From Rhizaria sp. SCN 62-66 (lineage: Eukaryota), in NCBI GenBank assembly GCA_001724265.1, contig MEDY01000239.1, positions 1 to 53,149 of the forward strand: a DNA stretch of 53,149 bases, in the 5' to 3' direction. The translations under genes were made by a program, and so were the position numbers. The notes beneath the pieces are model-generated. The model was given only the letters and a program-made list of their open reading frames with translations. It made no database searches and was not told the origin of the DNA. Below, piece after piece: positions 4,111 through 49,482 of this stretch (within the stretch, counting starts at the first letter, position 1; the number at the start of each line of letters is the position of its first letter).

Positions 4111-4689
4111 TTACCGGGCAGCCTTGGCAGCACGCTCGATCTCGCCGCGCTTCTTGATAGCGAAGGAGTTGAGGTTGTCGGAGGCGCAGTTCATGATCTC
4201 GTCAGCGAGGCACTCAGCAACAGACTTGAGGTTGCGGAAGGCCGAGGCGCGGGCGCCCTGGGTGATGAGGTACACGGCCTGGTTGACGCGACGGAGGGGG
4301 GAAACGTCGCACGCCTGGCGGCGGACAACACCGCCGGAGCCGATGCGGGTGGAGTCCTCACGGGGGCCGGCACGGGAGANGGCAAGGATCTGGATGGGGT
4401 TCTTCTTGGTGACGAGGGCGACGATCTCAAGGGCCTGCTTGACGATGCGGATGGCAAGGAGCTTCTTACCGGTGTTGCGACCGTGGAACATCATCGAGTT
4501 GACGAGGCGCTCGACGACGGGGCAGGACGCCTTGCGGAAGGCACGCTTGGCATAGCGGCCAGCAGTGTGGGGAGCGTAGACGGCGCGCTTCTTGATAGTG
4601 ATGTAGTCGACCAGGGAGAGGTCGGGGACGGAGACGTCGTCCAGGGAGAACTTGTTGAAGAGGCGGACCTCGTTAGCGAACGTAGCCAT
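4111..4689 (-). CDS. RPS5: 40S ribosomal protein S5 (uS7)
   Basis: [79 protein letters not shown]. One N at 4380, and the region appears about 2 codons short. Confidence 0.98.
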
Positions 4690-11768: not shown

Positions 11769-14700
11769 TTAGATTTTCGGCAACGGCACCGGCTGAATAC
11801 GCTGCATCATAGCATGCAGACGCTCGCTCTCGCCGCCCACACCAACAACATCATCATCGTCCTTATTGTGGCTCGAGCGAGTGTCGGTGTTGGCGCTGCT
11901 GTTTTGACGCGCTTTGCGATAGCGCGCGCGCGCGGCGGCGGCGTTGGCCGCAACCGTGTCCGCGGCGCGGGCGAAAGCGCGCGCAGCCAAGGGGGTGGCG
12001 AGGCCGTCGGCAGAAGGGGCGCAGAGCCCGGACCAGCTGACGGACTCGGCGGCCGCGAGGGCGGCGGCGGTGAGCGCGACGGGAGGCGTCGGAACCACCG
12101 AGTCGCCGGCGTTCACAGACGCCGCCTTGCGAGCGCTCGGGCCCGTCGTCGTATTGCTGTTGTTGCTCGCATCAGCACCTTTGTGCGCGTGTGTGAGCGC
12201 GCGTGCAAGCTCTTTCCCCAAGGGCGGAATGATCGGGTCAACAATGTCAGTACCACGACGCTCGTGTTTGTCACTGCTCATACTCAGAGCAGCGTAAGTC
12301 GAGTCACTGGTTCCCGCGCTCGCGTTGCCGCCCGCAATCGCAACATTACCGCTCTTGTCATGCTGTTGCTTGCTCTCGCTCTCGAAGTTAAGCCGCATCG
12401 CGAAGTCTAGCCGCGTGCGCACGGCGGCGACGAGCGCGGGCACAGCGACGGGCTCGGCCCTGGCGAGCAGCAGCAGCAGTTGGCCCACGCGGTCGCGCAG
12501 CGCCTGCGGGTAGTGGAACGGGGACAGCAGAGGCGTCACGGCCGCAGCGATTACCGTCGCCGCCGTCGCCCCCACCCCGGCCCCGCTGGCGCTGGCGCTG
12601 GCGATGTACGCGGTGCTGCTATGAGAGCTGTCGGTGTGCGTGTTGGCGATGGGAAGCGAGAGCAGCTCGGGCAGCAGCGCGGCTTGCGTAAACGCGACCA
12701 CGACGCCGGCAATAAGTTTGGCCGCCAGAGTCACGCTACTCGCACTCGTGCTGCTGTAAGTCTGATGACCAGCAGTGCTGGTGCCGATGTAAGTGTCGGT
12801 GAACCGCGCGCGCGCCTCGGCCAGCACCGCCAACAGCAGCGGCAGCGCCTCGGCGGCGAAGCGGCCGGCCAGGAAGCGCGGCGCGGCTTCGAGTGCGCAT
12901 GATAGCGCGGGCAGCGCGGCCGCCGTCGCGGGGGTCACGGGCCGGTGCGTCAGCGGCAGAAGCAGTGAGGGCCAAAGAGACGCGAGGAGAGGCAGCAGGC
13001 GGCGGTCCCAGCGGGAGGGTAAGGGGGTACTTACATCATGCGTCTGAGATGCACCGTCGTCGTCATAATCGTCATCACTGTCACTCTCATCACTCTCACT
13101 GCCATCACCACTCTCGCTATGATGAGCGTTGTTGTCGTCGCTGTCAGTGACTTCCTCCACATAGGCGGATGAAGTGCTGAGGTCCTTAGCAGATGTCTTT
13201 CCGCCCATATTCTTCTCATCGTCAGCACCAGCACCAACATCGGCGGTATAATCCTTCGTGCTGGCAGCATCATTCGCACTCACGACCCACTCTTCGTCGC
13301 CATACTCCATCGTCGAAAAGGCATTCTTGGACTTCTTCGCCCCCGCGGCCTTCCTCTCCTCCTCCGTCATCACCACCCCGCCGCCCAGGCCGCCGCTGCC
13401 GCCGCTGCTGTCAGTGCTGGCGTACGCCCGCAGCGCCGGCGCGGCGCGGCCCGCCGCGGCGAGCGCGGTGACAACAAGGCGCGCGGTGGCGAGTGCAGCG
13501 ACGACGACGGCGGGCACTGGCCACGCGAGGAAGGGCTGCACGTGCGAGAGCACACGCACCAGTACGGCCTCCTCCAGCGACGCGCCGGGGTCTTCGTCGT
13601 CGTCGCCGTCGTTCGCCACGCCATCAGCGTCCGCGTCAGCGGCAGCGTCGGCGGTAGCGGCAGCTTCCTCCGCAGCAGCGGCATCGAGCCCTTGCTTGCG
13701 CAGTTGCCTGATCTTTCGCTTGCGCGCCGCCGCTTTGTCAGCAGCGATGATGCCTTCGAGGCTTCCGTCCAGATCGGCGTCCTTTGCCGTCGAGCGCGAC
13801 TTGCGCTGGGTCTTCGCCTTGGAAAGCGCGTGCTTCGCTGCCCCCAACCCGCCCATCTTGACACCATCCATAGGATCCACCTCCCCTTCCTCGTCATCGC
13901 CGTCTAAAGCACTGCTCTTACTCTTACTCTGAGTCTTGCGCTTGCCTTGAGTACCGCGGATCTGCTTCGACTCCGCGAGCAGCGCCCACCACTTCTGCGC
14001 GATGTCTGCCGCGCTGGCGCCGCCGCGCTGCGCCGAGCTCAGCAGCGCGGACTTGGCGCGCGCGGTCGCGGCGGCGCGGCTGTGCGTCGCGGCCGAGGCG
14101 GCCAGCGCGGCGGCCGCGGCGGCGGCGGGGGGCAGCGCAGGCAGCGCGAGGAGCAGCGCGGGCTGCTCCGAGACGGCACCGGCAGTGGCGCAAACTGTAC
14201 CAGAGCTGGCAGCGTTCCTGCCGTTGAGAGGCGCATCCTCGTGCCACGGCCACAGAGGGCTAGCAGCGCTAGAGCCGGCGTCAGTGAAACCACTAACACG
14301 CGACTCGCCACCATCGCTCGCGACGGTAGTCCCTGTCTTCGCAGCAGCAGCGGAGAGCTGGAGTTGTTGTTGCTGCTGCGCGTGCTCAATCGCGTTGATG
14401 TGCGTGATCTTGCCGCCCTGGAGTGTAAGTGCCTTGGGTTGCAGACTAAGTACCCTGGGATTAGCCTCCCCGGGCGCTGCGTGGGCCCGCTCAACCTCGT
14501 CCACAGCCACGACAACCGCGGCACTTAAACCAGTGTAAGTAGCTGCGGAGGCGCCGCTGCCGCCCGTGGAGAGACACGGCACAGCAGTGGCGGACGTTGC
14601 GGCAGTAGCGGTGGCGGCGTTCGCGTCAGCCGTGGCCGCTGCGGAGGCCGACACGTACGGAATGCACACGACCCACTTAGACTCGTGTAAGGGGTTGCCG

Positions 14701-17700
14701 GCATCAGCGCCATTGCTGTGCTTGCTGCTGTTGTTGCCGCTGCGGGCGCTGTTGAGATTGCTGCTCTTGGAGACTGTAAGCACGCGCCGGTACACAGCCC
14801 TTACAATCGCGCTGACAAGGTCTAAGTACACCAGCACACCCTCAGACGCACTCACATTCACGCTAGCGTTCGGACTGGAGCTCGCTGTCGCCGCCGCCGC
14901 TGCGACGGCCGCCGCGGTGCTCATGCTCTCCAGCACCTCTCCCAACAGATCTTTGAGCGCGGGCACCAACTCTGGCCCCGCGGCAGCCAGGTCCAGCGCG
15001 GCCCGCAGCAGCCGCGGCAGCGCCGCCGCCGCCGTGGCCGCCGTGGCCGCCGCGGCAACCGCGGTGGCGGCCGCGGCGGAGGCGGCGCGCCAGTCGGTCA
15101 GGGCGCGCGCCAGCGACACAAACGCGCCGGCGCCGCTGTTCGTCGCGACAACGCTAGTGCCCGTGCTCGTGTCTGCGGTGGAGGGCGAGGAGGCGGATTG
15201 GCTTTGCTGCTGCTGCGAAGACGCGGCTTGGCTTTGCGCGTAGGCCCTCATGGCGTTTAGGTAGGCAGCGCGCACTTTGACGAGCGCTAGCTGTACGGCA
15301 CCATCAAAGTCATCCTGCTGTTGTTGCTGCTGCTGTTGTTGCTCAATGCTCGCCGAAGTCAGGCCGCGACGACCTAACTTCCTGACCTGACCAGCAACGT
15401 GCGCGACGAGGTAGTCAGCGTTGTGCGCAACGAGCAGGTCCGTGCGGCCCTGGGGCGCACCGGAGCGCAGCGCGAGGCGGGCCAGCGCGGCGGCCGCGGC
15501 GGCGCGCGGCGCCGGGTGCGGCGACGCCAGGCGCGGCAGCGCGAGGGGCAGGACGCGGGCCAGCAACGCGGGCGGCAGCGCGGACGCAGAGAGCGGGGCC
15601 AGACACGAGGCCGCGGAGGCGACGAGGCGCAGCGCGTGCGTGTGCAGCAGCAGCAGCCGATGCTGGCGGAGCGACGCCGGGGGCAGCGCCTGCGCCTGTG
15701 GCTGTGTCTGCAGTGCGGGGGCGAGGAGGTCGCTCGCGGAGGCGCCGCTGTTGATGGCCCGGAGGAGAGTGAGTGCGGCGACGGCCGACGCGGGCGTGTG
15801 CGCAGGCAGGTGCCACAGGGAGGACTGGGTCAGGGTCTGCAGCGCTGTACTTAGACTGGATGTGAGTACCTCGGAGGGCGGACTCGTGGGGTCGAGGCAC
15901 CAAGGGTACTCATGCTGCTCAAAGTCGTTGGCGACATCGTTGTCACTGTCGCTGTCGTCGTCGCTGTGGTCGCCGCGGCTGCTATCCTCAGTCGCCGTGT
16001 CAGCAAATTCAATGCCGATGTTGGTGTTGGCGATCATGTTGGCGTTGAGATCATCAAACGGCGCAGTGAAATCAGTGTTGATGTAGTTGAGGTCGTTGTT
16101 ATAGGCATTGTAACTGAACTCGGGATTATTAGCACTTGCGGTTGCAGCAGCCGCCTCAGCGCGAGGGTTCTCTTTGCTGCTCGTAAGACTGCGAGCCGAG
16201 GGGATTTGCGGAGGCAGCAGTGTAAACAGCGATGTAAGGGGCGCGGCGTGACTTCCGACCGCGGAATCGGCAAACTCGCCTGCCACCGCGGCCACAGCGG
16301 CCACAGACACACTATGGTGACCGTCATTGCGGTTCGCAGTCGTGTCATAGTTGCCGTTAGTGAGAGAGAGCAAGAGAGAGTTAAGGCTGTTGTTGCGATC
16401 GACGGCAACCTCCGCAAGCACCGCTGCTGCTTCATCTTCCTCATTAGCGTCTAAGATGGTGCCCACACCGACACTGGATGTTAGTGCTTCCTCAGAGATC
16501 TGCCCCCACTCCTGCTGCACACGCACACCCAGCACGAGCTGGTTCAATACAACGACTGATTCTGACGCGTAGCCGTCGGCCTCAGCGGCGGCCACGGCGG
16601 CGGCCACGGCAGCGCTCGCGGCACTGCCGCTGCCGCTGTGACCGTGGGCGGCGGCCGCGGCGGCCGAGCGGCTGCGCAAGCCGTGGCTGCCGCTGCCGTT
16701 CGCGGAGATGCCCATCGACTCGATCAAAGTCAGGGCGCGCTCGGACAAACCGGGGGGGAGCTGTCGGCTAGAGGTGGAGTTAGAGCTATGATTCCCACTT
16801 GCAGTAACATTCGGAGCGGCTGAGCTGGAGCTGGAGCTGGAGATAATCCCTGCGCCAGAGCTGGTGGTGACGTCGATGACAGTGCCAGAGCCATTATCAG
16901 GATCAACATTGCTGCTGTTGCTGCTGCTCTGCGTGAACGTAAGCGCCTAAGGTCGAATCGCACTCGCGTCGCCGGTCCCTCTTACGCCGGCGGCGTCCGC
17001 GGGGGTACTTAGATCCCCCGCAAGCCCGCTGCTGACGATGGCGCCCCGGGTCGCAACGACCGTGGCCACGCCCGTAGTCAGCGCAACCTCGGCCCAGCCG
17101 GCCACCACGGCCGCGGCGCCGGCGCCCGCCCAGGCAGCCAGCGCGGTGGGCAGCAACAGCAGCAGCGCGGCGGCCTCGGCGTCGGCCGCCAGCGCGGGCG
17201 CCAGGGCCGGGAACGGCGGCAGCGGCAGCTCGTAGTCGGCGTCGGCAGCACCCTCACTGTTACCGTTCCTGCGGGCGCTATCAGGGGTGTCGGAGGGGAC
17301 GGAGCGGTCGAAAGTTAGGCCGCCCCTCACCCCCAGCCCACCGCTCGCACCGGAGTTATTGGAGCCCGTGGCGCCTGTGCCCGTCGCCGTCGTGCCCGCG
17401 GCCGAGGAAATGAGCCCCGGTGAGACTGAGCCTGGCGCCAGTGCGAGCAGCTGTGACAGCGCGCGCACCAGCGCAGGGAACGCAGACAGCAGAGTGTAGG
17501 CGAGCGCGTTGCCGTACGCCTCGCGCCGCAGCAGGTGGTCTTCCCGATCTTGCTCATCGGTGGTATTGCCGCTGCTGCTGCTGCTGTTGCGGTGACGACG
17601 GCCTACCTTCCCGACGCGGCTTAACTTGGTCCTGCCGAGCATGGCGATGCTGGCGAGCAGCAGCCGCAGCGCCCATGCCTGTTTGGCGGCCGACGCCGTG

Positions 17701-20700
17701 GCGTTGGCGTGCGTCAGCAGCGCGGGCAGCGCGAGCAGGCGCCGCAGTGTGCGCTGCTGCAGGGCCTTCGTCACAACGGAGCCGTAGAGCGGGGGCGTGA
17801 GCGCAGAGTGCAAGTACCGCAGGCGCATGGGGGTACTTAAATCCATGTAAGGGGCAGGGACACTCTCAGACTGGCTATGAGTGCGACAAGTACGTTTCTT
17901 GCTTAATTTGCGCACGAGCGCCGCCGTGCCGTCTAAGGGGGTACTTAGATCCCGCAGCGCCAGCGTTGCAGCCCTCGCAGCTGCGCTCGCAGCGCCCACA
18001 CCGACGCAGACACTTGAGCCAGAACCAGAGCCAGAGCCAGTCGCGATAGAGTTAGAAGAGCCAGTGTCAGCAGCGGCGGCGGACAACAGGGCGTCCAATA
18101 AGGTAAGCCGCACTGCGCCCGCAGCTGCCTCAGCCTCAGCCCCAGTCTCCGCCTCCGCCCCTTCTTCATCATCACCAGTCTCTCCAACAGCATCAGCGCC
18201 AGCGCCAGTGTGAGTGCGCGTGGTCGCGACTGCGGCGGGGACAGCGACGGGGGAGAGGTAGAGACAGGAGACGGACCGCAGCAGCGTCGCGGCCGCGGCC
18301 ACGAGCGCGAGCCGCGACAGTGGGTGCGAGCTGCCGGCGACGACGACGCCCGCGCTGCCGCCGGCCACTGCGGCGGCGTCGCCCGCGGCATCGCCACTAC
18401 CATGGTCGCCGCTACTCGAGGCGTCTTGGCAGTCGGCCAGAGGGGCGAAGACGGGCGCGCAAAGACTGCCGATGCGCGCCGCCGTCTCGGCCAGCCAGCG
18501 CGGGGAGCGGGTTCCGAAAAAGTGCCCCTGCTGCTCGCGGTCGGCGCGCTGCTGCTCGAGCAGAGCCAGCGCGCGCGCGCGCAGCGGCGGCGGCAGCGCG
18601 TCGAGCGACTGGCCGCCGAAGGGCAGGGGCGGCTGCAGGAAGTTGCTGATGTCGGCCTTGCGGGCGAGGGTTGAGGTCAGCCAGGTTAGGACCCGGGCAC
18701 TTGAATCCAACGACGCCACATCGGTCTTGTCATCAGGCCTGAGGTTATTGCTTACAGCCGTGCCCGGCTCCGGTTGCTGTTGTTGCTCAGCAGCAGCAGA
18801 GTCGGCAACAGACACAGCAACAGAAGCAGAAGCGGAGACAGCTTTCGCTTTGGCAAACAGCGAGGACAAGCCAGCAGGCAGCGCGGCGTTAACATTCACA
18901 CTTGCATCTACGTTGTCTGCGATATCGTTATTGCTGGCGTCTTTGTCGCTCTCGGTGCTGCTGGACGGCATAACTTCCTCGCCACGCGGCTTATCTTCCA
19001 CGCCGCCGCCGCGCCCCCACTGCCTCGGCTTGAGCGTCAGCGGGTCAACGCATATCAGCGCCAGGGCGGCGTCGCCGAGGCAGAAGGCCACGGAGGCAGT
19101 GAACAGCGCCAGCACGCGCCTGTACAGCCGAGACGTGACACTGGGACTCAAGCTAGCAGCGGTGCTTACATTGCCGCCGCCGAGACTATTGCTGGCAGTA
19201 TGAGGAGTATTGCTACCGCTGCTGGTGCAGAGCACGTGAGCGCAGCCGCCGACGACGCCGGGCAGTAGCGAAGCCCACACCTCGGCGCCCAGGGCGACGA
19301 GCCCGGCCTCCTGGCCCCAGCGCCGCAGCAACAGTGAGGACCCGGGGGCGGGGCCGCGGACCGCGGGCGAGAGGTACAGGGCGGCGGCCGCGGCCGCAAG
19401 AGAGCTGGAGCTAGAGCCAGAGCCAGTTTCTGTGCCAGAGCCGGAGCTAGAGCTCGACTGAGACTTGGTATTACTCTTGTTGTTGTTCTTGTAGTTGTAG
19501 TTGTTGCTGGCAGCGGCAGCAATGGCGGCGGCGGCCTTGGTGGCAGCGTAGACCGCAGTCACAGACAGGGGCACACCGGCACGCGCATTCGCATTCGCAT
19601 TCGCACTGATGGCACTATTGCCGCTGTTGTTTGTGCTCATGTGAGTGTCGGTGATGTAGGTGCAGTCCAGGGAAGGTAAAATACGCAGCAGTTGCCTCCT
19701 TTGCAGTCCGGACATGGCAAGCGCGGCACTAAGAGGGTGCTTAGACAGAGCGTTCACACCGTAAGCCAGAGCTTCGGCGTCGACCGTGTTGCCGTTGTTG
19801 CTTGCATCGCTCATCAAGTACTTAGCCTGGTGGGGGTACTTAGACGCCGCCGACGCGAGGACCGCGGGGTAAGCAGCCAGCCGAGTCGCCATGGCATTCT
19901 CGAGCTTGGAGAAAACGAAGGCGCCGACGCTGTTAGCTGCAGAGCCAGACGCCTTGTTGTGAGCGTTCGCGTCTGTGTTATTAGATGCGCGTACTTTGCG
20001 TTGAGCGTTCTTGCCGAGCGATGTAAGTACATCGAGTGTAAGGGGGTCCGACGCCGTTTCATCAAGGCCAGCCACCACCTCAAGCCAGCCCTGCGATTGT
20101 GCCAGCGACCGAGACTTTGACGGCTGTTGCGCCTTTTGCTGCTTCAGACTCACGGTGACGGCCTCCGACATAGCCAGCACGACCCCCGCGCTGTGCCGCA
20201 AGTGCGGCTGCTCGCGCCCCAGCAAGGCCCTTAGACAGCTAAGGGTGTCGGCCGCCAGCAGCCGCACCCGCATCGGCACAGCGCCGCCTCCGGTCGCAGC
20301 CCCGGGCGCAGGCGCACTCGAGGCCTGCTGCTGCTGCTGTTGCTGTGGCAGCTGCTGCGAGGGGGCGACTCCCTTGATGAGGGAGAGGCAATGCGCAACC
20401 GCGAATCCAATAGAGACGCGCAAGGGCGCTGACGTAAGGGTCAGCGCGAGTAAGGGGGAGTCCGTGGCCGATGTGATGAGCAACAGGTACTTGAAGCAGC
20501 GCAGGGACGCAAGGTACACCGACTCGTGTGTTCCAGGCGTCATCGTCGCATTCGCACTCACGCTTGCGCTGTCCGCTTGAGTGGGGCTGCTGCTGTTGAA
20601 GGGCGGCAGTGTGCTGGGCTGCAAGAAATCAATCAAAAAGCGGAACAAAACCGAGAAAATGGGGTCACGCGTGAATGCCAGCTGTTTGAGCACCGAGCCA

Positions 20701-21397
20701 CTGCCGTTACTATCCCCAGAGACAGAGCCAGAGCCAGCGGCAGAGCTTGTACTGCTATAATTGTTATTATTGTTGTTGTTGACTGTGGTGGAGAGGAAAA
20801 ACGCAAACGCGGCCGCGAGCGCCTCGAGCGCGGCGGCGACAACCGCGGGCACGAGCAGCGGCGGCAGCAGCGCGCGGTCCAGCAACACGCGCGACACAGT
20901 GCCGAACAACGGGTCGAAGAGGGAGGCCGCTTCGGGGGGCGGCAGAAGCAGCAGCGATTCAGCCTCGGCTGCAGTCATAGCGCCACCACTGGCACTGGCG
21001 CTCGCAGTTGCAGTTGCAGCTGCTTTGGCACGAGGTGCGAGCGGCGGCGGCGCCGTTGCGGCGAACTGGAAGTACCCCGCGATCGCGGTGAGGGCCTCCG
21101 TGGCCGCGTGGGCGAAGGAGGTGCTCACGTTGAGCCAGTGGCGCTGCTGCAGCGCGCGCTCCTGTGCCTGCTCCTGCGCGCTCATCACCACGCTGATGCT
21201 CACGCCGCTGCTGCCAGCGCTCGGACTGCTCGCATTGGCCCCGGCGTTAGCGCTGCTAGTGGTGGTGTTGTTGTTGTTGATATTGTTATTGGCCATGTGG
21301 AAGGCTGTTGCGGCAGTGCGCAGCTAGAGATACTGTTGCGACAGCGAGTGGAGCGACTGAGAGATAAACTGGGCAGCCACTGAGGTCAACTCGAGAC

Positions 21398-21441
<44 letters not shown>

Positions 21442-21542
21442 GGCTGCGGCTGCTGCTGAGGGCGGGCAGACGAGGACGAGGGGGCAAAGGGAAATGTGAC
21501 GCCCGGGGAAGCGCCAGCTGGGCGCTGCGGGGTGCCGTTCAT
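11769..21542 (-). CDS. TTI1: TELO2-interacting protein 1 (TTT complex); one 3257-codon frame containing two in-frame TAG (21326-21324, 16949-16947)
   Basis: TTI1-like motifs in the expected order: IGFAVAHCL, WASLLPGVV, RSPRWLAETAARI, then after the second TAG, DLLVAHNADYLVAHV, LLPLLASLWPSL, FLAGRFAAEALPLL. The three listed ORFs share one frame (gaps of 27 and 198 nt with no other stop). Stop TAA. Confidence 0.85.
17932..17949. repeat. Most perfect copy of the dispersed hairpin motif TCTAAG-GGGGTA-CTTAGA
   Basis: 6-bp inverted repeat with a 6-nt loop; about 15 full or partial relatives across the window (see findings). Confidence 0.7.
21400..21456 (-). repeat. (CAG)n poly-Gln tract at the TTI1 N-terminus
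   Basis: CTG run on the + strand, encoding QQQPQPQQQ...Q. Confidence 0.9.
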
Positions 21543-21970: not shown

Positions 21971-23166
21971 ATGATCGGCCCCGCACGTCAGGCGCCACTG
22001 CCTGCACCTCCGCTGCCACCCACCGTTTCATCGGCCTCGGCATCTTCGGCGCACTCTTCCGCTTTGCGCGCCGCTGACCCACATGCCCCGCATCGCATCA
22101 CCCTTGTTGCCCGCGGCGCACCGCGCGGCATGACGGCCGTGCCCCAGGACGAGGAGGAAGAGGAGGAGGACGGCAGTGCTCGCTCGGCACGGGCCCCAGT
22201 TCCCAACCTGAAGCTCAAAGGCATCGACAGTACGTCTTCTATCACGCGCTAATTAAGGCACCTCGAATTTAATTTGAAGTGTGCGTTCGTCCACTTTCTT
22301 GTCCATCCGCTCACCAGAATTTTGTCATTTTCCCGTGTTTTGTACGTTGTTAAACCTGCGTAGTTTTGAAGCAACCTGGCGTAGACGTGCACACCAAGGC
22401 CATCATCTTCTTCCACACGCTGCCGATGCCGCTGCTCGCACAGATCACCGACACCTACGGCGTCTACACCACAACGGCTCTGACAACAGGCCTCGTGCTC
22501 TTTGCGCCCGTCTACCTCCTTTTCGCCCTCGCCAAGGTGTACCTGGCGTTCCACCACTACCTGCTGCCGACCGCGCTCGCGCTGCTGTCCTCCGACGCTG
22601 CCGCGGCCGCCGCCGCCTCCCCGGCGCCGCCGCTGCCCGCCGCGCTGGCCCCGGTGCCCGCGCTGCTCGTGATCACGCTGCTGTGTGACGGCGCCGCCGC
22701 GCTGCTGCTGGGCATCGCCGCGGGCAAGCGCTGGCGCGCCGGCGTCGCGCTCGCCGTCGCCGCCGCCGCGGTCGCGCTCACGGTTACCCCGGCCCCGGCC
22801 GCCGCGTTCGCGGCCAGCGGCGGCCAGTTCGCGCACCTTGGGTACGCTGCGCACGCCCTGCTGTGGCCCGCAGCCGCGGCCGTGGCGGGGGCGGCGGCGC
22901 TGGCGGCCAGCCAGGCGCACCGCGCGGTGACCGTGAGCAGCAGCGACTGCGACGGCGGCTGCGGCGCGGGCTGCCGGTGCGTGCGGGGCGGGGCGGCGCA
23001 CCCGGCGGTCACTATGGAGGAGGCGGGGGCGGCCGCGGTGGCGGAGACCGTGCGGCGCGCCGACGCGCGGTTCGAGGAGGAGCAGCGCGAGCGCGAGGAG
23101 GAGCAGCAGCGGCGCGAGCGGCAGGCCCGCGGGGTCGACGACGAAGACGATGATTACGGAATCTGA
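21971..23166 (+). CDS. Hypothetical multi-pass membrane protein; exons 21971-22229 and 22364-23166
   Basis: The phase-1 intron 22230-22363 (GTACGT...GTAG) joins LKGID/ILKQPG. Several hydrophobic segments, a CDGGCGAGCRC cluster and a Glu/Arg-rich tail; stop TGA. The start could alternatively be the ATG at 22130. Confidence 0.7.
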
Positions 23167-29848: not shown

Positions 29849-30203
29849 CTTCGCTTAAGCAGCCAAGTGCTGTTCAAGCTGGTTTACAGGGATCATATTT
29901 GAGTTATATAGAAAACAAGGGAGATTTAGCTTCAAACTAAGTTACATAATACGAATACATACTTTTTATTTGGTTAACTCTTTTCGATCTTGTACTAATC
30001 ACGCGCTTCTGTGGTCAGGACAGCTTCTTGCCCATTTGCCCGCCATTGCGAGAGGTGAGGACAAAATATCGAGCGTTTGACTTGCACATGCAATATCTCA
30101 ATAGAATGATCGTCGGTAATTCCTAAACTTGACCATGCTCTAAATCAACCACTTTTGTCATCATTTCCCTTTTTATACTATTTCCTGTTGCAGGTGTCGG
30201 CGT

Positions 30204-33200
30204 ATGTCTTTGTACAACAAACGCCGCACCAAGATTGGTCCTCCAGACCCCGCGGGCACTGCTGCCGATACACCAACACCATCGTCACAACTCACGACAG
30301 CCGATAGCAGCACCGGTATGCTTGCTGCGCCTTACAGCGTCATTGCCGGTAGTGTGGCTAATCCATCTGGTGCTGCTTTGCACTCTGTGCGCTTGTCTGA
30401 GCCTCATCATACCTCCAACACTTCGACTCTTTGTCCTGCAACTACCACGACTTCCAGCCCTGCGCCAAACGTGACGTTTGGCCATGATGTGCCATCTTTA
30501 ACCAACGCACTGTTAGCGACCGGGGCTGCGCCGACAGTGTCAGCCACAGCAACAACTCTAACGACATCCGTCTATGCCTCATCGTTATCAACGTCGGCGT
30601 CAATTCCAGGCGCAGCGCCAGTGTCTGCCTCGCCGTCTTCCTTGCTGTACCAAGGCCGCAGCCGGTCTTTTGGCCACTCTGGCGTGACTGCAATGCACCG
30701 TGGCCTGACCTCAGGCCTTGCACACCGTTATCACGCAACCGGCGGGAGCAAAAGCAACAGCAATAAAGGGCGAATCAACGATTCTCCACGTGCGAACGAC
30801 GCAAAAAACGACACGAGCATCGGTGTCAGCACGGCAACTCACGACGATTCACGCGCTGACACGCACCCTTACATGCCCTCTGGAGGTGTAAGTGCTGCGA
30901 GTACCGGCGGCAACGTCACCACGATCGGGACCTGGCGCCGCACCCGCGGCAAAGTCGCTCCCCAGGCTCCAAACACCCCTACCGCAGCCAGCGATACTTA
31001 CCGTGACAGTCACACCGCATCGAGCTCCTCAGAGTCCCTGTCTCAATCTGGCCTCCAGTCATTGGCTTCGAACACAGGCCCACCGCTCTCGTCGTCTGGC
31101 AGCCAGTCCGAGGCGTACTACGTGACGCGCCTCGGCGAGCGCCTGCCCCCGGGCCCGCTGTCCGCGGCGGCCGCACGGCGCGAGCAGGAGGAGCAGGGGC
31201 TTAGGCTGGGAGCGGCGGCCTACGTGGCTGCGACGCTGCAGAGCAACAGCAACAGCAACGTCGGGATGAAGAGCGACTCTGAGCAGCAGCTGTGTGACGG
31301 TGACCAGGATGAGTTTTCTTGGGACAGTGCGCCATTAGGCCTGGCTTTTGAACAATTTTCAGGCAGGAGTAATGCTGTTCGTGCGCATTCTACGGCGATT
31401 GCTGCCGTATCAACCTCACATGCAGAGACGGTGACCGAGATTACGGTGAAGATTGAGTCTTCGTTAGATGCCACCGAGTCAGGGGCTGAGACCGAGGCAG
31501 ATGCGGCTGTACTTCCGCGCATCAAACGGCCGACCTTTGGGTCTCAACTTGACACCACTGCGCACAGGACGGCCGATGCAGCGTTAAACGCGTCATCTCA
31601 GTCGTCTGCTAGTGTCCAGTCTAAGTATCACGACTTCGCCCCGCTGCCACTCACCGCGTCTAAGTGGGCGCTTCCCCTACAGTTCACCACTGCACTTGCC
31701 GCCCGCGGCGTCACGCACCTGTATCCCTGGCAGGCGGCCTGTCTTTCTCTCCCAGGCGTGCTCGAAGTCAAGCCGCAGACGCACCGGACGACGGCTGCGA
31801 AGCAGAAGCACGGGCCTGGGCCGGCGACATTGCGCAATGTCGTCGTGTCCGTGAGCACGAGTGGCGGCAAGACGCTCGTCGCGGCCATCATTGCGCTGCG
31901 CCGCCTGCTGGAGCCCGCGCCGCTGCCGTCCCCAGGCCTCTGCGCTGACCCTCACGGTCGCTCGGCCACAAGCCGCCCGAATGGCAAGTCTCCCGTTCGC
32001 AGCCACAGTCTCAGTCACAGTCACCGCGTGGTGCTCTACCTTGTGCCCCTCGTCGCCCTTGCTGCAGCGACAGCGGCAGAACTTAGCACCCTGCTCGCGC
32101 CCCTCGGGCTGCGAGTAGCGTCCGCCGCCGGCAACACAGTCGCGCTCGCGAGCAACAGCGGCGCGAACGCGAGCGCGCAAGGCGGTGGCGGCGCGAGTGC
32201 TCTTGACACTGGCGCTGCCGGCGGTGCTGGCGCTGGCGTGGGCGCTGCGAGCACGGCTGCGGCGGCCGCCGGCGCGGACGTGTTGGTGCTCACCTACGAG
32301 AAGGCGACGGCGCTGATCTGGCATCTGACAGCATCAGCGCGCACAAAGGCGAAGACGACCACTCGAGCAACACCGACAGTTTCACAAGCTGCGACAGGTT
32401 CACAGTCGGGTGCGGCGGGCGCTGCATCTGAGGCTGATGTCGAGCTTGAGTTCGAGCCTCCCGCCATTGCGATCCCGCTCGTGGTCGTCGACGAGGCGCA
32501 CGCAGTGACCGACGAAAACGGCCGCGGCGCGGCGCTGGAGGCACTGATCACCGCGATGCACGCGGCGCAGGGCGGCGCTAGTTACATGCGGGGCCTTGGT
32601 ACTCACGCGGGCGACCATGGCGCTGGCAGTCAAAGCGCTGCTGTCTCAAAGACAGCGACTCTGGCGCCCGTGTTGCCGCGGACGCAGATGGTGTTGATGA
32701 GCGCTACTATGCCCTCGACGTCAACAAGGAGCACAACAGAGTCAGCGACCACAAACCCGAGACGGACTCAGGTGACTGTGGGCAGGGGCGTGTTTGGCAG
32801 ATGGCTGCGCGGTGCGGTGCAGTGGCCGCCTGCGTGGGCGCCGGTGCGGGACACGGGAATGCCAGGAACGCACACGTTGACAGCGGGCAATGAGACTAGC
32901 ACTAGCCGCAACCGCAATCACGTTGAGAGTGCATCCGACGGCGATGATAATGATGATGATGACGAGTTAGTAGCAGCTCTAAGGGGCTCCTTAGAGCAAC
33001 CCCTGCGCCCAGTGCCCTTAGAGATTGCGATTTACACTCCAGACCGTCAGCCGCCTCTGCTGCCACAGGAAATTGATCAGTCGCTCCCACAACTACCGTC
33101 TCCGTTGCGATCACAGTCAAAGACTCAGTCCCCTGTGAAGAATCGTGCAAACAACAACGGACCTAGCGGTATGCCAGGTGGTAATCTTGGTAATCTTCAG

Positions 33201-36200
33201 GCCTGTAGCGGCTACGACGGCGGAGCTCTGCGCGTGGTGGCCACCGACACCGGCCACGGCTGGGTGCGCACCGCCAGCAACTCCGACAACAGCAACGCTC
33301 TTCACAACGGAACAGCGACAGTAATGTCGCCAACAACGTTAGCAGTGCGACCCTCAGTCGCAGCATCGCTGTTCCGAGACGAGTTTTTTGGTCCGGCGAT
33401 CCGCCAGGGCGGCGCGCGGCGCAGCGGCGCGCTGCTGCCCCTCTGTGCGGCCGCTGTTGCGCTGGCTGGCAGGGCCGTTGGCGTCCCTGTGGCAGGCGCG
33501 GATGCCGCATCTATGAGCGCTGGCGTGAGCGCGAACATGAAGACTGAGAACATGCTTGATAATGACAAGGACGACGACGATGAGGATGACTTTGCAGACA
33601 ACAATAGCAATTCTACTAGTTCTATTTCTCGTGATGTAAGCCTCGACAGAAAAATGACTTCCCGCGCGAACGCTCCGGCAGCGCGCGCGAGCGCGACAGC
33701 TCACCCTAACACGAGCGCGAACACACTGGCAGACGCGGACACGCGTGCGAGTACTAGCACCGACACTAAGACCAAGAGCAGCGGCGGCGGTGTGATTGTG
33801 TTCCTGCCTACTCGTGACCGCACCGAGCAAACGGCACTGTCTCTCGCGTTTCAAAGCGCACACTTAACGAACCCCAATTCGAAGAGCCAAGCCGCAGTCG
33901 CCCAAAGCCAATCTGCGTTGGTGCGAAACCAAACCGAGCTGATTCAGAGTCTAGCTGCGTTCAAGCTTGCTCAAACGCAGTCCGCAGTTGAGGTGCGGAA
34001 GAGTCAACTGACCCCCGGCTCTGTTTATAAAACAGCGTCAAAGCCAGCAGCAGCGACAACATTATCAAAGTCACTGACAGAGGCACTCCAGTCACCCACG
34101 ATGACTGCAGGAACAAGTGTTCCAGCAAACAATAGCCGTCGGAGTAGCGCAAATCACCCTGCGAGTAGCACGACTCAAACCGAGCTGCAGCGACTGCTGG
34201 AGCTATTGCGCCAGCATTCTCGTCTGTTGTAGCAATACAACATGCAGCAGCAGCGCGAGTGCAGCGTGTTCCTTGGCCACATGCGCGTCTCTCTAAGCCC
34301 GCGGCTTAGCATCGACACACATACGCGGCTAATCAAGCTGAAGCCACTTGCGAGCCCAGGCTATGATCGCGCTCTGCAGTCCGCTTTGGTTGTTGCGGAA
34401 ACACCCATGAAGCTGGTCAGTTCTCCATCTAAAGCGTCATCTGCTCCTTTGAGTAAATCAACCGCCCCATCATCACCAGTGAAGGCTGAGACTGCAGTAG
34501 TCTCTGTCGTTGCTGCCGCTGCTGCTGCCATCGAGACTATCACTCAGCTCACAGTCGCACCGAGCGCCAGTGCTGAGGCTGTTGCCCCCATGCCGCTACT
34601 GTGGGCCCGTGCGATTGCTGCTTCATGCGTTCTTTGCCCGCCTTCTAGCGCACAACCATTTGCGCCATCTCCGTTGCAGCCACAGGCACAGTCTCTGGTG
34701 CCGCTGTCATTTCCGCTGGCCCCTGTCACGTCGTGCTCATAGTCGCTTTGGCTTTTTTGTAGCCGCTTTCTCTGCCCGCCTCCGCCAAAGAGCAATCAAA
34801 GTGCCCTCTTAGATGAGGTTGGGTGCCGGTTAGTTGCTGCGGCGTTTACGCTGATCCACGGGTACTTAGACGTTTCCCTCGACAATCTCAGGTCGAACCT
34901 TACGCTGACACATCTAAGTACCGCCACGGCGCCCACCACTCTGATTTTTAGTCAGGAGTGTGGGAGCTATGCTATTCCACTTCACAACAGTTACAACCAT
35001 AACTTTAGCAACACAAATGCACACCTTGCAGTAACCTTGACACCAATCATGGGCGCAAACTTAGGCTCTGTGATGGACACCTCCACTGCTGCGCATAACA
35101 TGTTTTTAGCTCACAGTCAGCGCAGGTACTATCACGGCGGAGCACAACCAGGGGCTGATGGAGATCTCTCGATCTTTGCCACCGGGGCGATGCTGGGAGG
35201 CGTATTTTACGTGCCTTCGGTCGCAGCTGCTATCACTCTAACGAACCTCTTGTTCCCACCTCTGACCAGCAGCGACAACAGCGAGGTGGACAATCACTCG
35301 GATGCTGCCACTGCTAATTGTTACTTGCTGTCGTGGCTTCGTGCCCGCGCCCGCGCATTCGCTCTGCTTGCTTCACAGTCGCAATCTTTTGCGGGTGCAG
35401 CCAGGGCTGCTGCTGCTAGCCTTCGCGACACGAAAGCTGTCGTCGCTACTGCAAATGCGGCAGCTGAGTCTGCATCTTCGTCTGAGCAATCGAGTGAGCT
35501 GGTGTTGGAGCGACTCACTCCAGTGGTATCTTTGTGTCACACCGACTACGACCTGTCGAAGCACCCCGGCTTCTCTCATCTGACGACCTCGCAGCGCCCT
35601 CCTTTCGACTCATCGATTTTCTCGGTCTTGCTACTACTGGGGGTCTCGCCGCACCACAGCGCGCTGCCCCCCGCGCACCGACGCCTGGCCGAATTCGCAT
35701 TTGCGTCGCGCGTGCTCGCAGTCATAACGGCCACGACGACGCTCGCGGCGGGGGTGAACCTCCCGGCGTCAGTGGTGGTGTTGACCTCGCACTTGACCGG
35801 GATCACGCCGCTGACGCCGCCGCAGCTGAAGCAAATGGCGGGCAGGGCAGGACGCATGGGCGCGGATGCTGCAACGAACAGCACTGCAACTGCTGCCGAG
35901 TCTAAGACTGAGACTGATGCTGATGCTGATGCAGAAGCAGTTGCTGTTGCAGAGGCAGCCGGGGCAGCCGGGTTGTGTGTGCTTGTTTCTGGCATCGACA
36001 CTAAGGAGGACACGTGGCGGCGGCTTATCTTTGATACCAGCGACTCCGAGCGCAGTAAACAATAGAGCCAGCCACAGAGCAAAGCGGGCGGCGCTCCCGT
36101 CCGATTCAGTGTGTCTGACGACTGTGCGAGTAGCTGGTTACGTAAGCTTCCTCCGCCATCGCTCAGCTTATACTTTCAACAACAGCGACAACAGCAACAC

Positions 36201-38519
36201 ACACAACAGAACCCACGCTTCTTACGCTGTTTCAAATGTTGGGCTGACGTCGGCAGTCGAGTTGCACACGATAGCTGGCTGTACGAGTTGTTCTGTCACT
36301 ACACGGCATTTATTTTCTCACATCCTACGTACTCCGACACAGCTGCATTGGTTGCATCCGCTTTGCAGCTGTATTCAACATCACAACTCACCAATTCACT
36401 GTCAGCGTTGCAGTGTGTTGCCACTGCAGTATTCACTCTTGCATTAGGACGAAGCAAGCTAATTTATGCGAACGCAGACGATGCACACACGTCGCCGCCC
36501 CCGCCTTGTTTCCCGCTGGTTCTCACATCGGCCGGACGCAACAACCTGCAGCGCGTGCTCCTGTCCTGGGTCTCGGTGCACTTGGACTCCGCCGCGCCCC
36601 CCTCAGACGCCACTCTGGCTGCGCTGGCGGGCGCGTCTCTGGCGGCCAGTGAGCTGGCTGCAATTGCACAACGGGCGATTATAGACACCATCAAGTCTAC
36701 CTTTTCAGTGTGTCGACCGTGCGCAGACTCTCATCTCAACAACGGTGCGGACAGTCTCGGGAATGTAAGCGCTGACTCGAGCCTCGGCGGAATCATTGCA
36801 AAATGTGCCGGCGCTGTGCTGGCGTTACCCGAGCTAGAACTGCTGCAAACGATGGGTCTGATCACATCAGTCAGCAGCGACTGCAATAGCAACAACAACA
36901 CGACTAGGGCATTGCTTTCAGGTACGGCTTACCTTCCAACTCCCTCGGGCCGCACTGTCTTCCACTCGTCACTGGCCCCCGCAGAAGCACTGGCGCTGCT
37001 GCGTGTTGCTGATGCAGTTGCAGGCGGCCTAACTTCGGTGACACAGGTCGCGCTATGTCTGTTTTGTATCACGTCGATGGGGGTGAAAAACAACAGCAGC
37101 AGCAACATTGCTGGCGCAAACACAAATGCTCGGAAAGGTGCTGCGATGAACAGCAGCAACGTTACAGGGATGAGCAACTCCGGTCTCAGCGGAGGAGGCA
37201 CTGGCGTGGGCATTGATGGCGTGAGGTGGGACAACCTACGGGTTGCAATCACGCCGCGTGCTTACAGTAAGATCGCTGTCACTACTGCCGCGGTCAGTTC
37301 CATCTCTAGCGCGACTGCCCAGCTCCCAAACATGAGTTCAAACGATGTTGCAAGCGTCACTAATGATGACGTCGGCGTCATGCCGGAAACTGATATTCAC
37401 CGCGCGCACGCCACGATGTACAAGAAGACGACGGGCAACAACAGCAACAGCAATTCTACTGTGGTGGACGCTGACGCTTCGACAGCTGACGCGAACTTAG
37501 GTTTCGCGACTGGTGTTGTCGCTCCTATTCTTGACGCAGAAGCAGCCGCCGCTGCGGAGGCTGCTGCTGAGGCCGAATCAGAGGCTGCCGCTATTGCCGA
37601 CGCTGCGGCCGTTGCTGCTGAGACGGCTGCGCGCGGCGGCTTGACCCCAGGCGAGTCTGCCGCTGCCGTGGCGCTCGCCCGGCTACTCGGCGTGCGGGTG
37701 AGCACCCAGTCGAAGAGCAATCAACGGAGTCAGACTGTTGCTTCTGCACTGAGTCTCAGTTCCTCCTCCACTCATAGTCTGAGTGCGATGCGTGGCGGCT
37801 TAACGATCGCCAACGATTACGACGACAGTGACAACGACGGTGATGCCAAGGGAGATGAATCTCATGGACGAAGTGTTCGATCTAAGGGCGGATACTTAGA
37901 CCTTGACGACAGCCCAATCGATTTCCTCGCTCTCTCCCGTCAGTCCCCCTTGCTTGCGCTCTATGCTCCGTTACGCCCCCTTAACGCCACCTACACCGTG
38001 TCCCTACTGTTCTCCGCCCTCGTCCTCAGCGACACGCTCACCCGCGGCCCCCTTGCCGCGGCCCGCTACTGGGGTGTGCAGCCCTCCGCCGCCGCCGCGC
38101 TGGTCTCCGCGGCGCCCTCGGCGGCGGCGCTGGCCACGATGCTCTGCGAGGGCCGCGGTCACCGCGCGCTGGCGCTGGCGTTGGTCGAGTTCAAGGCCTC
38201 TGTGGTTGAGCCCGCCGCTGCGGCGGTGGCTGCGCTAGGTGACGCGTACACTGGGCTGCATAGCTACAACAGCAACAACAGTCACAGTGCGAATGGCGGT
38301 GGCGCTGTGGCGTGGGAGCCCTGGACGATTGCAATGACTGCGGCGAACCCTAATGCTGCGGCGGCTGCTGGTGCTGCTCCTGCTGATGCTGTTGAGTATG
38401 CTGCCACTGCTTCCGCCGCGGCTGCTGCTGCAGCGGCCAGGGCTGGCACAGAGGCTAGGAAGCGACAGGACCGAGACAACAGGGTGCACCAGGCATGGTC
38501 AGCGTTAATGCTGGACTGA
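30204..38519 (+). CDS. HELQ: HELQ/HEL308 (POLQ-like) Ski2-type DNA helicase; one 2771-codon frame containing three in-frame TAG (34230, 34740, 36063)
   Basis: Q motif LYPWQAACL, motif I STSGGKTLVA, Ib TYEKA, II VVDEAH, III MSAT, RPVPL, IV VIVFLPTR; after two TAGs, GVSPHHSAL, V ATTTLAAGVNLPA, VI KQMAGRAGR; after the third TAG, the winged-helix-like PTPSGRTVFHSSL. No polymerase domain. Stop TGA. Confidence 0.88.
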
Positions 38520-38718: not shown

Positions 38719-40323
38719 TTAATAGTCTTCCTCGGAGTACTGCACGAAGTGCAGCGTGGGGTCCTGCCACGACTCCTGCTGCGTCTTCTTGTTGCGCCAG
38801 CCGGGCAGCCCGCGCGAGTCGACCTGCGTGACCCAGTACTTGCGGAACTCGTAGGGCACGGGGAACGGCTTGTGGTGGGCCAGTGCGCGGAAGAAGGAAA
38901 GGGACATCGCGGGGTCGAATAAGTTAAGCCGCCGGACAAGCTCGCGGGCCTTCGCACGCATGTGGGGGTCAGACGATCTATACGAGATATAAAAAAAATG
39001 CAAGATGAGACATACAAGTTAGTGAGGTAAATAATGACTACACCAAAAAAATCTATTTTTCACGCTCAATATGAACAAGTTCAAATGCGCAATTGTGCAT
39101 TTGTGCGGCGTGTGATGCACGTGTTACGTACTTAAGGAGCGCGGCCGAGTGCCGCATCAGCCCCGCATAGACCTCGGCCTTGTCCTCCTCGATCGCGGCC
39201 ATCGAGTACCGGTTAAGGAACGCTGTGCCGACGCCGATGTCGACCTCGCTGTGCGGCGAGATGGTGGCGGTGCCGTCGCGGTCCTGGGCGCCGCCGTCGC
39301 CGTAGCGGAACCCGGGCGGGTTGAGGCAGTGCCACAGCGGGTCCGTGCCCACCGACTCAGGGTTGCGGCCGCAGTCCGAGGCCGAGTCGAGCGGCCGCAG
39401 CCAGAGGCGGACGGCGGCGGAGCGATGCGCGGCCAGCACGGGGATCAACGGGACCGGGAAGGCCAGCGACTCGGCGAGGGGGACGCCGGGGGCCGCGGGG
39501 GTGACGGCGAGGGACACGGTTAGCGTGCTTGTCGTCGCCGTCTCCACAGTTCCAGTCGCGCTCGCATTCGCAGCGGGGGAGAGACTGCTGGACTCTGAAG
39601 GCGCCGCGGTGGCAGCGGCGGCGTTTGCGTGGTCAGTTTGAGTGGTGTCCGGACCCGCCGCGCTGTTACCGCCAGTGTCCGCCGGGGGCAGAGTGGGGCT
39701 GAGGGGGCTCACAGTCGGGGAGGCTGGGGTCGCGGGCACTGTGAGAGCCAGCGAGTGCAGCTCTGAGTGACCGTGGGCGTGACTGTGGGAGTGACTGTGC
39801 GAGGTGCTCACAGTCGCGGCCTGACCGTGGGCAGCAGCAGCAGGAGCGCGAGTGCGACTCTGAGAGTTGCTAGAGCGGCGTTGAGTTGCGACGTCAGAGT
39901 TCGTCATTTGCTGCAGCTGTTGCTGTTGCTGCTGTTGCGGCTGCGGTTGCAGAGGCATGGGCTCCGTTTCAGTCTCAATCTCGACGGTATATTCAATGGG
40001 AGTGCTTAAATGAGCATGTGAGTTGTGCGTGTTGTGGTTTAAGTACCCTTGCGAAACTAAGTAGTTCTCCGCATCCGCGGCCGCCGACTGAGTGGCGGCC
40101 GCGATCGCTGCCGCCGCGATGTAGGCCGCGTCCTCCTCATCGTCCTCGCTGTTGATGCCCGCGTCGTCGCTCATAAAAGCCGCCTTGTTGCGGCCGACGA
40201 CGCGGCCGCCAGCCCCGCTGTTTGCCGCTGCCGCTGCCGCTGCTGTTGGGATGCCTGTGGCGTTGACGCGGCCACCGACGACAACATTGCCGTGACTCAT
40301 GTTTGCACGCGTGCTCGCATTGC

Positions 40324-40357
<34 letters not shown>

Positions 40358-48168: not shown

Positions 48169-49482
48169 TCACTCCTCATCGAAGTACATACCCGCGTCGC
48201 CACCAGCAGCCCAGTCACCGCTGCCGCCCTCGTCGTCCTCCTGCTCCTCCTGCTGGCCCCGCAGCACCGCCGCCGCGACCTCGGCCTCGGACATCTCCAG
48301 CACGCGCGCCTGCGCGCGCCGCAGCTGCAACTCCCCATCCTCGCCGTCGACAGCAGGCTCAGCATACACGCCACCACCGCCGCTGCCGCGAGCCGAGTCA
48401 CCGGAACCCGCGCCCGCGTCGGGCAGAGACGCCTTGTGCGCAGCGCGCATGGCCGCAATGCGGGCCTTGGCTTCCTCGTCATCGCTGCCACTCTCACTGC
48501 CACTCAAGTAGGCCTCGTCCCCGTTCGCGTCGACATCGATGTGCCTCTTGTCTCTATCAGCGCCGGTGCCGCGGCTGTTGTCAATGTTCGCGTCGTCGTC
48601 GACCTCGTTCGTAACGCCGTCGTCGTAGTACATGTCGACATCTTCGTCGTCGTCGCCGCCATTCTGATCATTGGCGCTGATGCTTGCGAAGTGACTCCGC
48701 TTCACTGGGGCATCATTGTCATTCTCATCGCCGTCACCGTCGTCATCGTCGTCGCCCTCGTTCACGCCGCCGCCGCTGTCGCTGGCGTCATCACCGCGCA
48801 GCCGCTTGCGCCTGTTCTTCTTCTTCATCGCCCGCGCGGCCCGCGCCACGGCCTCCGCGCGCTCCTTCTCCTGCCGCACCCGCTCCAGCCGCTCGGCGAC
48901 GCTCTCCGCGGCCTTGCCGCCGCCCGCCGCGCCCTCGGCGAGCCGCCGCACGTGATGCGCAATGCGCGCGCGGACGTCGGTCACGGAGGCGCGGCGCACG
49001 TGCATGCTCACGCCCAGCGCTTTCTGGTGCTTGCGGCCGTTGATGTGCGCCAGGTAAGCCTGCGAGTCGGAGAGGATGACGTCGCAGACGGCGCAGTGGA
49101 AGCCCGCGCGCGTGCCCTTGGTCACCGCGAGGGTCTTGCCGACATTAGCGTAGAGGTCCAGGCGCGCGTCGCGAGCCGACAGCAGCCCGCGCGGGGCGGC
49201 ACTGGCGGCGCCGGCGGCATTGCCCGCAGCCGTGGCGGACTAGGCCTCTTGCTGTTGGGCGGCGGCGAGGTACTGGGAGGTGTCCCAGGTGCGGCGGCCG
49301 ATGTTGTCGACAAACTACAGTGTGGGATTAACCGAAAAAGTGAAATCAGGAAGTAAGAAAGAATGGATGAGACTGGCGTGCGCTGAGTAATACGTAAGAG
49401 ATGAGGAGTGAAGAGCTTGGAACAGGGGCATGTAAAGCGACTGATGACGAGGGACCGTAATTACCTTTTGTGGCTGAGCCAT
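48169..49482 (-). CDS. ZMAT2: Zinc finger matrin-type protein 2 (Snu23); exons 49482-49465 and 49314-48169; in-frame TAG at 49242-49240
   Basis: Spliced product MAQPQK/FVDNIGRRTWDTSQYL...QQQEA*SATA...RGLLSARDARLDLYANVGKTLAV...GFHCAVCDVILSDSQAYLAHINGRKHQKALGVSMHVRRASVTDV follows ZMAT2 (RRKWDxxEY; LLxxRDxxVDL; GYYCxVCD; HINGKKHQ). Stop TGA. Confidence 0.9.

Follow-up and report, generated by a model that had tools for sequence, protein, structure and literature searches.

The codon UAG is probably a sense codon in the eukaryote represented by a stretch of 53,149 nucleotides (nt) from Rhizaria sp. SCN 62-66 (GenBank assembly GCA_001724265.1, contig MEDY01000239.1; hereafter the window, meaning the whole stretch analyzed here, to which all positions refer), and TAA and TGA would be its stops. 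Across 16 re-modelled genes of the window, comprising 13,809 codons, six in-frame TAGs were counted, together with no in-frame TAA and no in-frame TGA, and the same genes terminate nine times in TAA, seven times in TGA and never in TAG. The in-frame TAGs are located in the coding frames of three separate genes, which are a helicase gene of the Hel308/HELQ/POLQ type (three TAGs), a TTI1-like gene (one or two) and a SNU23/ZMAT2-like gene (one); TAG is thus the sole in-frame stop type, and no modelled gene terminates with it. Reading UAG as sense is the simplest account of these three observations, namely the six in-frame TAGs, the absence of in-frame TAA or TGA and the absence of TAG terminators.

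Readthrough of TAG joins large coding pieces, which measure 1362, 170, 441 and 818 codons in the helicase gene and 76, 1459 and 1726 codons in the TTI1-like gene; readthrough of TAA or TGA joins no large coding pieces anywhere in the window. As to the gene ends, TAG makes up 20% of the stop trinucleotides in the non-coding DNA of the window, and at that share the finding of no TAG among 16 terminators has a probability of about 0.03. The lack of TAG terminators is modest evidence when taken alone, and it is independent of the in-frame count.

The helicase gene (30204..38519, + strand) is a reading frame of 2771 codons that runs from ATG 30204 to TGA 38517-38519 and whose internal stops are three TAGs alone. 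TAG1 (codon 1343, 34230..34232) falls in the long insert that separates motifs IV and V, TAG2 (codon 1513, 34740..34742) in a pyrimidine-rich stretch with a negative coding score, and TAG3 (codon 1954, 36063..36065) where RecA2 meets the putative winged helix. HELQ-like proteins have an S-x-L motif after RecA2, and TAG3 lies three residues past its invariant S. An earlier note on this DNA had divided the gene into four open reading frames (ORFs) separated by gaps of 9, 294 and 45 nt, and both the ORFs (30204..34232, 34242..34742, 35037..36065 and 36111..38519) and the gaps were recovered as it gave them. The 1428 codons downstream of TAG1 are free of TAA and TGA, for which the probability by chance is about 5e-13 given the base composition. 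Moreover, codon usage in the other genes of the window was used to train a model, which scored the helicase frame best in six of six segments, including the 294-nt "gap".

The frame carries the complete motif set of a Ski2-like superfamily 2 helicase of the Hel308/HELQ/POLQ type, including the Q motif, Walker A (GKT), DEAH, SAT and motifs IV, V and VI. In nucleotide order on the + strand, these are LYPWQ (starting at 31719), STSGGKT (31854), VVVDEAH (32481), MSATM (32697), VIVFLPTR (motif IV, 33792..33815), TTTLAAGVNLP (motif V, 35733-35765) and QMAGRAGR (motif VI, 35832-35855). These positions bear out the earlier placement of motif IV before TAG1 and of motifs V and VI after TAG2, and RecA2 is accordingly split by TAG1 and TAG2, both of which lie in an insert of ~640 residues that separates motif IV from motifs V-VI. 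Pfam assigned a DEAD domain to residues 543-645 and a Helicase_C domain to residues 1813-1886 of the 2771-codon translation. Among solved structures, those of the POLQ helicase domain and of Hel308 are closest by sequence (E 1.5e-13 to 4e-13), with the match limited to residues 1804-1896. The earlier note regarded this as a single, intact gene of the HELQ type and not as a pseudogene; that view is supported by the intact motifs, the single stop type and the absence of frameshifts, and its strongest support comes from two further genes of the window with an in-frame TAG, which lie outside the coordinates first noted.

The part of the protein encoded after TAG3 was also compared with known folds, using an AlphaFold model of residues 1790-2771 in which TAG was read as Q and which was built on an alignment of 26 rows. 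The model is poor overall, with a mean predicted local distance difference test score of 53, and contains confident helical blocks past TAG3. A Foldseek search with it returned no match at E <= 0.001, the best being POLQ at E 0.059. Re-scoring with VIA-align, which was applied to the top Foldseek chains only and in which helical folds can reach such Z values by chance, gave Z 12.0 against Hel308 2va8_A (root-mean-square deviation 3.3 A over 224 residues; model 138-883 to chain 419-646) and Z 13.3-13.9 against POLQ (model 136-968 to chain 513-892). The structural alignment to Hel308 and POLQ spans TAG3, beginning 27 residues upstream and extending to about 720 residues downstream. The aligned ranges match the winged-helix and ratchet region, which in this predicted model is supportive of the post-TAG3 part belonging to the helicase. 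Compared with the helicase-like domains of Hel308, HELQ and POLQ (2va8, 2p6r, 5a9f, 9bh6-9bha), the product would share motifs I-VI and, putatively, a winged-helix/ratchet-like unit after RecA2, whereas it is about three times longer at 2771 residues and carries low-complexity inserts. No polymerase domain was found in it by Pfam. The best helicase match other than the gene itself was a 628-residue metagenome protein (P0080), in which the motif V-VI block is duplicated identically (residues 230-310 and 491-575); this duplication is probably an artefact of assembly or of the gene model.

The helicase TAGs are real. The window sequence comes from a metagenome and is present in bioreactor, wastewater and activated-sludge runs of 2015-2025, these habitats being named from runs other than X6-X9, whose word shares are small, and a contig from another study (X3) covers 33870-34912 with no differences and bridges both TAG1 and TAG2. 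A strain about 0.6% divergent (X4) was also recovered, and its differences are considered here for 40 of 93 differing places, which are those listed. One of its contigs, covering 32270-34771 and ending 29 nt past TAG2, has 15 differences, of which 14 are listed and none of those listed falls at a TAG; another, covering 35820-36468, bridges TAG3 and has a single difference, at 36206. In public protein collections, the helicase exists only as four fragments cut at its TAGs, and these TAG-bounded pieces recur as 1342 residues on six contigs, 158 or 166 residues on five and one, 330 or 338 residues on one and two, and 802 residues on six. Assembly error as the source of the TAGs was therefore rejected, since contigs of other studies bridge them and the same TAG-bounded ORF pieces are found on up to six contigs. 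The X4 contig at 32270-34771 also shows a 3-letter length difference within repeat-rich coding sequence of the helicase, by which the frame is kept.

Transcription of the region was assessed with a polyA metatranscriptome run (X5). Its depth is 0.15 in 23170-23836 and 0 in 29840-30506 (intergenic; the DNA runs have a depth of 5-7 there). The helicase transcript appears to continue past TAG1, because the polyA depth is 1.2-3.0 in all four bins spanning 33842-36499.

The TTI1-like gene (TTI1 being TELO2-interacting protein 1; 11769..21542, - strand) comprises about 3257 codons and ends in TAA. Readthrough of TAG 16947-16949 fuses two long minus-strand ORFs into a single TTI1-like frame, and the 77 codons from this TAG to the next ATG have a coding score of +0.52 and a guanine-plus-cytosine (GC) content of 0.58, in keeping with the flanking coding sequence, whereas intergenic DNA has a GC of 0.40-0.49. 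After the TAG, Pfam detected TTI1 (PF21547, 24.6 bits) and TPR_TTI1_C (PF24181, 15.9 bits) in the right order, both under the cut-off of 27, and the N-terminal half gave only generic HEAT/TPR-like look-alikes. TAG 21324-21326, located in an N-terminal extension of the gene, is probably a second in-frame TAG, and the stretch upstream of it scores +0.30 at a GC of 0.65. The TTI1-like protein contains a 20-residue Q run, and the X4 strain carries a 9-nt insertion (TTGCTGCTG) at 16908, in repeat-rich coding sequence of this gene, with the frame kept.

The SNU23/ZMAT2-like gene (48169..49482, - strand) consists of exon 1 (49482-49465), an intron (49464-49315) and exon 2 (49314-48172), and ends in TGA. 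Exon 1 encodes ATGGCTCAGCCACAAAAG and exon 2 opens with FVDNIGRRTWD. The in-frame TAG (49240-49242) is located in a GC-rich exon, 17 codons past RRTWD and ahead of the C2H2 finger. Human ZMAT2 aligns to residues 70-234 of the gene product (E 4e-22) over a stretch that spans this TAG, and yeast Snu23 was matched at E 1.3e-4. The RR(K/T)WD motif followed by a matrin-type C2H2 zinc finger is present, with a zf-met match at E 1.3e-6. The finger is not rescuable by a downstream start, because no in-frame ATG occurs between the TAG and the finger, the first ATG lying past it.

Three TAG terminators in the first ORF list were rejected by codon-usage scoring and homology, as two belong to antisense ORFs and one is intronic. 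The TAG-ended ORF 3883-4788 (+) is an antisense artefact of a ribosomal protein uS7/S5 gene (4111..4689, - strand; Pfam 8e-36, PDB 1.7e-82), which ends in TAA, and the TAG-ended ORF 22249-23241 (-) is likewise an artefact of a gene on the opposite strand (22354..23166, +; coding score 0.52), which ends in TGA. The third apparent terminator, TAG 39053-39055, lies within a 154-nt AT-rich intron (38978..39131, - strand; GTACGT..CACTAAC..TATAG), whose removal is the sole splice by which the upstream frame continues into a last exon (38977-38722) that scores well and ends in TAA; a model with an 86-nt intron (5' site at 39063) was rejected, since it does not join the frames. As well, a Joint Genome Institute (JGI) contig of the same species (L001, 99.7% identity over 4.7 kb) reaches 3.5 kb beyond the left end of the window, and the extra gene that it carries ends in TGA.

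If UAG is sense, the helicase would be one intact protein of 2771 residues of the Hel308/HELQ type, and its three TAGs would be ordinary but rare sense codons. Either a tRNA whose anticodon is CUA or a near-cognate one might decode UAG, and eRF1 would no longer recognize this codon well. These two steps correspond to the mechanism in known code variants that affect UAG only, for which Gln and Leu are the amino-acid precedents. An Rfam scan of the window gave no match at gathering thresholds.

Several observations weigh against a sense meaning of UAG. The sample is limited to 53 kb plus 3.5 kb and 16-17 terminators, and the probability of finding no TAG among them, about 0.03 at a background share of 20%, would be about 0.17 at a share of 10%. 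TAG accounts for 0.04% of codons and occurs in three of the 16 genes, the remaining roughly 7,400 codons having none. No tRNA gene was found in the window, and eRF1 lies outside it. The TAG of the SNU23/ZMAT2-like gene aligns to E in the human protein and to L in the yeast protein, and TAG3 aligns to H, K, I, A or N in HELQ-like proteins, one column past a conserved L, so that the two alignable sites show no consistent residue. Word-index searches around the helicase TAGs, at near and shorter lengths, and a complete HMMER scan covering 1.84 billion representatives yielded no orthologue showing the residue at a TAG site, and returned only the four fragments of the window itself and remote matches to motifs V-VI; no match came from metagenome, genome or viral contigs when these were scanned with the RecA1 part.

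The local setting of the helicase TAGs also speaks against their being sense codons, as all three sit in inserts or linkers whose conservation is poor and whose local coding scores are weak. The 40-codon flanks on the two sides score +0.01/+0.21 at TAG1, -0.32/+0.02 at TAG2 and +0.18/+0.08 at TAG3. Around TAG2, the stretch 34575-34790 is pyrimidine-rich (0.62-0.66) and has a negative score in four consecutive windows, such windows making up 0.9% of controls; it ends in TTTTTTGTAG at 34762, and could represent either an intron or an unusual linker. In the helicase, 21 strain differences are listed, of which 13 are nonsynonymous and eight synonymous (ratio of nonsynonymous to synonymous polymorphism, pN/pS, about 0.57), compared with 7:3 in the neighbouring gene, numbers that have no statistical power. 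Among the best-supported X5 RNA rows listed, no contig crosses a TAG and no difference falls at a TAG, which neither supports nor refutes a sense reading. Finally, the intron of the SNU23/ZMAT2-like gene (49315-49464, - strand; GTAATT...CTGTAG) is 150 nt long, in frame and stop-free, and itself ends in an in-frame TAG. This intron would pass as a recoded TAG if the homology to ZMAT2 were not available.

Splicing is an alternative explanation, by which each TAG would lie inside a frame-preserving intron and be removed, as happens with the 150-nt intron of the SNU23/ZMAT2-like gene. The genome is intron-poor rather than intron-free, about half a dozen introns being seen in 53 kb, and the known ones are 86-172 nt long with GT[AG] 5' sites, CTAAC/CTGAC branch sites and pyrimidine-rich 3' ends (0.60-0.69). 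The surroundings of TAG2 resemble them in pyrimidine content, and 11 of the 75 frame-preserving GT..YAG pairs at this site pass loose filters, all with weak 5' sites and a GC of 0.53-0.58, so TAG2 itself may be spliced out. Weak frame-preserving candidates were also found at TAG3 (two) and at TAG 16947-16949 of the TTI1-like gene (four, one of them with GTAAGA and CTCTAAC). However, none of the 82 frame-preserving GT..YAG pairs at TAG1 and none of the 22 at the TAG of the SNU23/ZMAT2-like gene has usable intron signals, and TAG 21324 has no candidate with such signals either. The GC of 0.55-0.60 around all three helicase TAGs departs from the 0.28-0.46 of known introns, and the 77 codons past TAG 16947-16949 of the TTI1-like gene score like coding sequence. 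That six introns should all preserve the frame and lack TAA and TGA would moreover be a large coincidence, and the absence of TAG terminators would be left unexplained. Splicing of all the TAGs is considered improbable.

Three further explanations keep the standard code, and each is weighed here against the same facts. Site-specific programmed or leaky readthrough at these TAGs only recalls tobacco mosaic virus, whose leaky stop context is CAA-UAG-CAA-UUA, inasmuch as CAA follows TAG1 and CAA precedes TAG3. A common context among the six TAGs was sought and not found, the next bases being C, T, A, G, C and T, and three successive leaky stops would give a very low yield of full-length helicase; readthrough also leaves the lack of TAG terminators unexplained, and we regard it as about as improbable as splicing. 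Slightly less probable still is that the genes are young pseudogenes or nonsense alleles, whether or not functional copies exist elsewhere. This reading would fit the low GC at third codon positions of the helicase (0.62-0.63 versus 0.71-0.93 in other ORFs), its mean coding score of 0.19 versus 0.34 with 15.8% of windows below 0, and a pN/pS that is indistinguishable from neutrality at 21 sites, and TAG would presumably arise more readily than the other stops in a genome where G-ending codons abound. But three of 16 genes would then be broken, including one for a core protein of the U4/U6.U5 tri-snRNP (small nuclear ribonucleoprotein complex) in an intron-bearing organism as well as the TTI1-like gene; all six in-frame stops are TAG, with no frameshift in 8.3 kb or 9.8 kb; the same state is seen in runs from 2015 to 2025 and in a diverged strain; and the TAG-bearing genes lie in regions with polyA RNA coverage. 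Editing of UAG in the mRNA, for example A-to-I editing yielding UGG, appears equally unlikely. Editing of genes with a premature UAG is known in some filamentous ascomycetes, and the restriction to TAG fits the preference of such editing for UAG. It does not predict the lack of TAG terminators, the X5 RNA rows listed show no difference at a TAG (coverage at the TAGs themselves not being among those rows), and the one ribosomal protein of the window is closest to non-fungal chains.

Stop-to-sense changes that affect UAG alone have precedents among nuclear codes. According to the excerpted text of a previous study (PMC5304391), UAG encodes Leu in the rhizarian exLh and Gln in Iotanema spirale. 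The same excerpts count 56 UAA, 15 UGA and no UAG among the exLh terminators, with 384 in-frame UAGs in 71 genes, and describe the amino acids of exLh and Iotanema as fixed by conserved alignment columns together with a cognate tRNA or an eRF1 change (PMC5304391). The window resembles both, as far as these excerpts go, in having UAG alone in frame and only UAA and UGA at gene ends (nine TAA, seven TGA, no TAG), whereas it differs from exLh in having just six in-frame TAGs among 16 genes, and these are confined to three of the genes. In contrast, the codes of Condylostoma, Parduczia and Blastocrithidia are described there as context-dependent, with more than one stop type reassigned and the reassigned codons also terminating (PMC5304391). 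On that description, stop codons with a sense meaning inside genes are the common feature, while in the window no modelled gene terminates in TAG, and neither TAA nor TGA occurs in frame.

Phyllopharyngean ciliates offer a further parallel, in that a report found by mining genomes derived from metagenomes, in the part available, that UAG encodes Leu or Gln in them and UAA is kept as a stop (PMC11687900). To that extent the likeness to the window lies in the reassignment of UAG alone, with UAA still a stop. Unlike a ciliate sequence, the window has a GC of about 60%, forms a 53-kb contig with many genes and contains introns of 86-172 nt. Its uS7 protein matches a chain that we take to be from Tetrahymena at 3e-63, far weaker than the best chains at 1.7e-82. 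The closest uS7 chain is 5xxu_F, and the other closest ones are presumably from a plant and an apicomplexan; an HD-domain protein of the window has its best named matches in blastocladiomycete fungi (46-51% identity), and no placement is drawn from either protein. Relatives in metagenomes carry the HD protein at 70% and 53% and uS7 at 87% (L002).

Nuclear genomes rarely give UAG a meaning different from UAA, only a few lineages being on record in the excerpted text of two studies (PMC5304391, PMC11687900). A full-text search of the literature found no paper that links a eukaryote from wastewater or activated sludge with UAG reassignment. A further non-ciliate case, persisting in engineered reactors, would add an origin, and a reassigned codon that is rarely used may reveal an early stage of code change. 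We tentatively suggest, as a possibility that falls somewhat short of even odds, an independent and early-stage capture of UAG in a free-living, GC-rich and intron-poor wastewater eukaryote outside the ciliates. If so, UAG would be gone from all gene ends and yet make up only about 0.04% of codons, chiefly in long genes whose codon bias is weak, and a code change in progress would be recurring in reactor communities sampled from 2015 to 2025. In practical terms, standard gene callers fragment the long genes of this organism, and eukaryotic bins from such samples need code screening before annotation, because the helicase sits in public protein collections as four fragments only.

Other features of the window are given here for completeness. 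Further likely introns, with CTAAC/CTGAC branch sites and pyrimidine tracts, were located at 2134 to about 2300 (+), 7441-7612 (-), around 9365-9394 (-) and around 21641-21686 (-). The gene at 39132-41473 (-), whose last exon (38722-38977) was mentioned above, ends in a short putative WW-domain-like tail (GLPGWRNKKTQQESWQDP), a name taken from a reading of the motif. The single N of the window, at 4380, is inside the uS7 coding sequence. The 99.7% match of L001 runs leftwards from the uS7 start codon, and the 699 bases of this contig upstream of uS7 (L001 1-699, compared with window 4690-5407) match nothing in the window, which reflects either a structural strain difference or a chimeric contig. 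Finally, the proteins of the window are unusually long and contain numerous runs of poly-N, poly-Q, poly-A and poly-S, and most of the large ones have no Pfam family; a 50-residue N run is likewise present in an ATG4-like protein encoded on L001.

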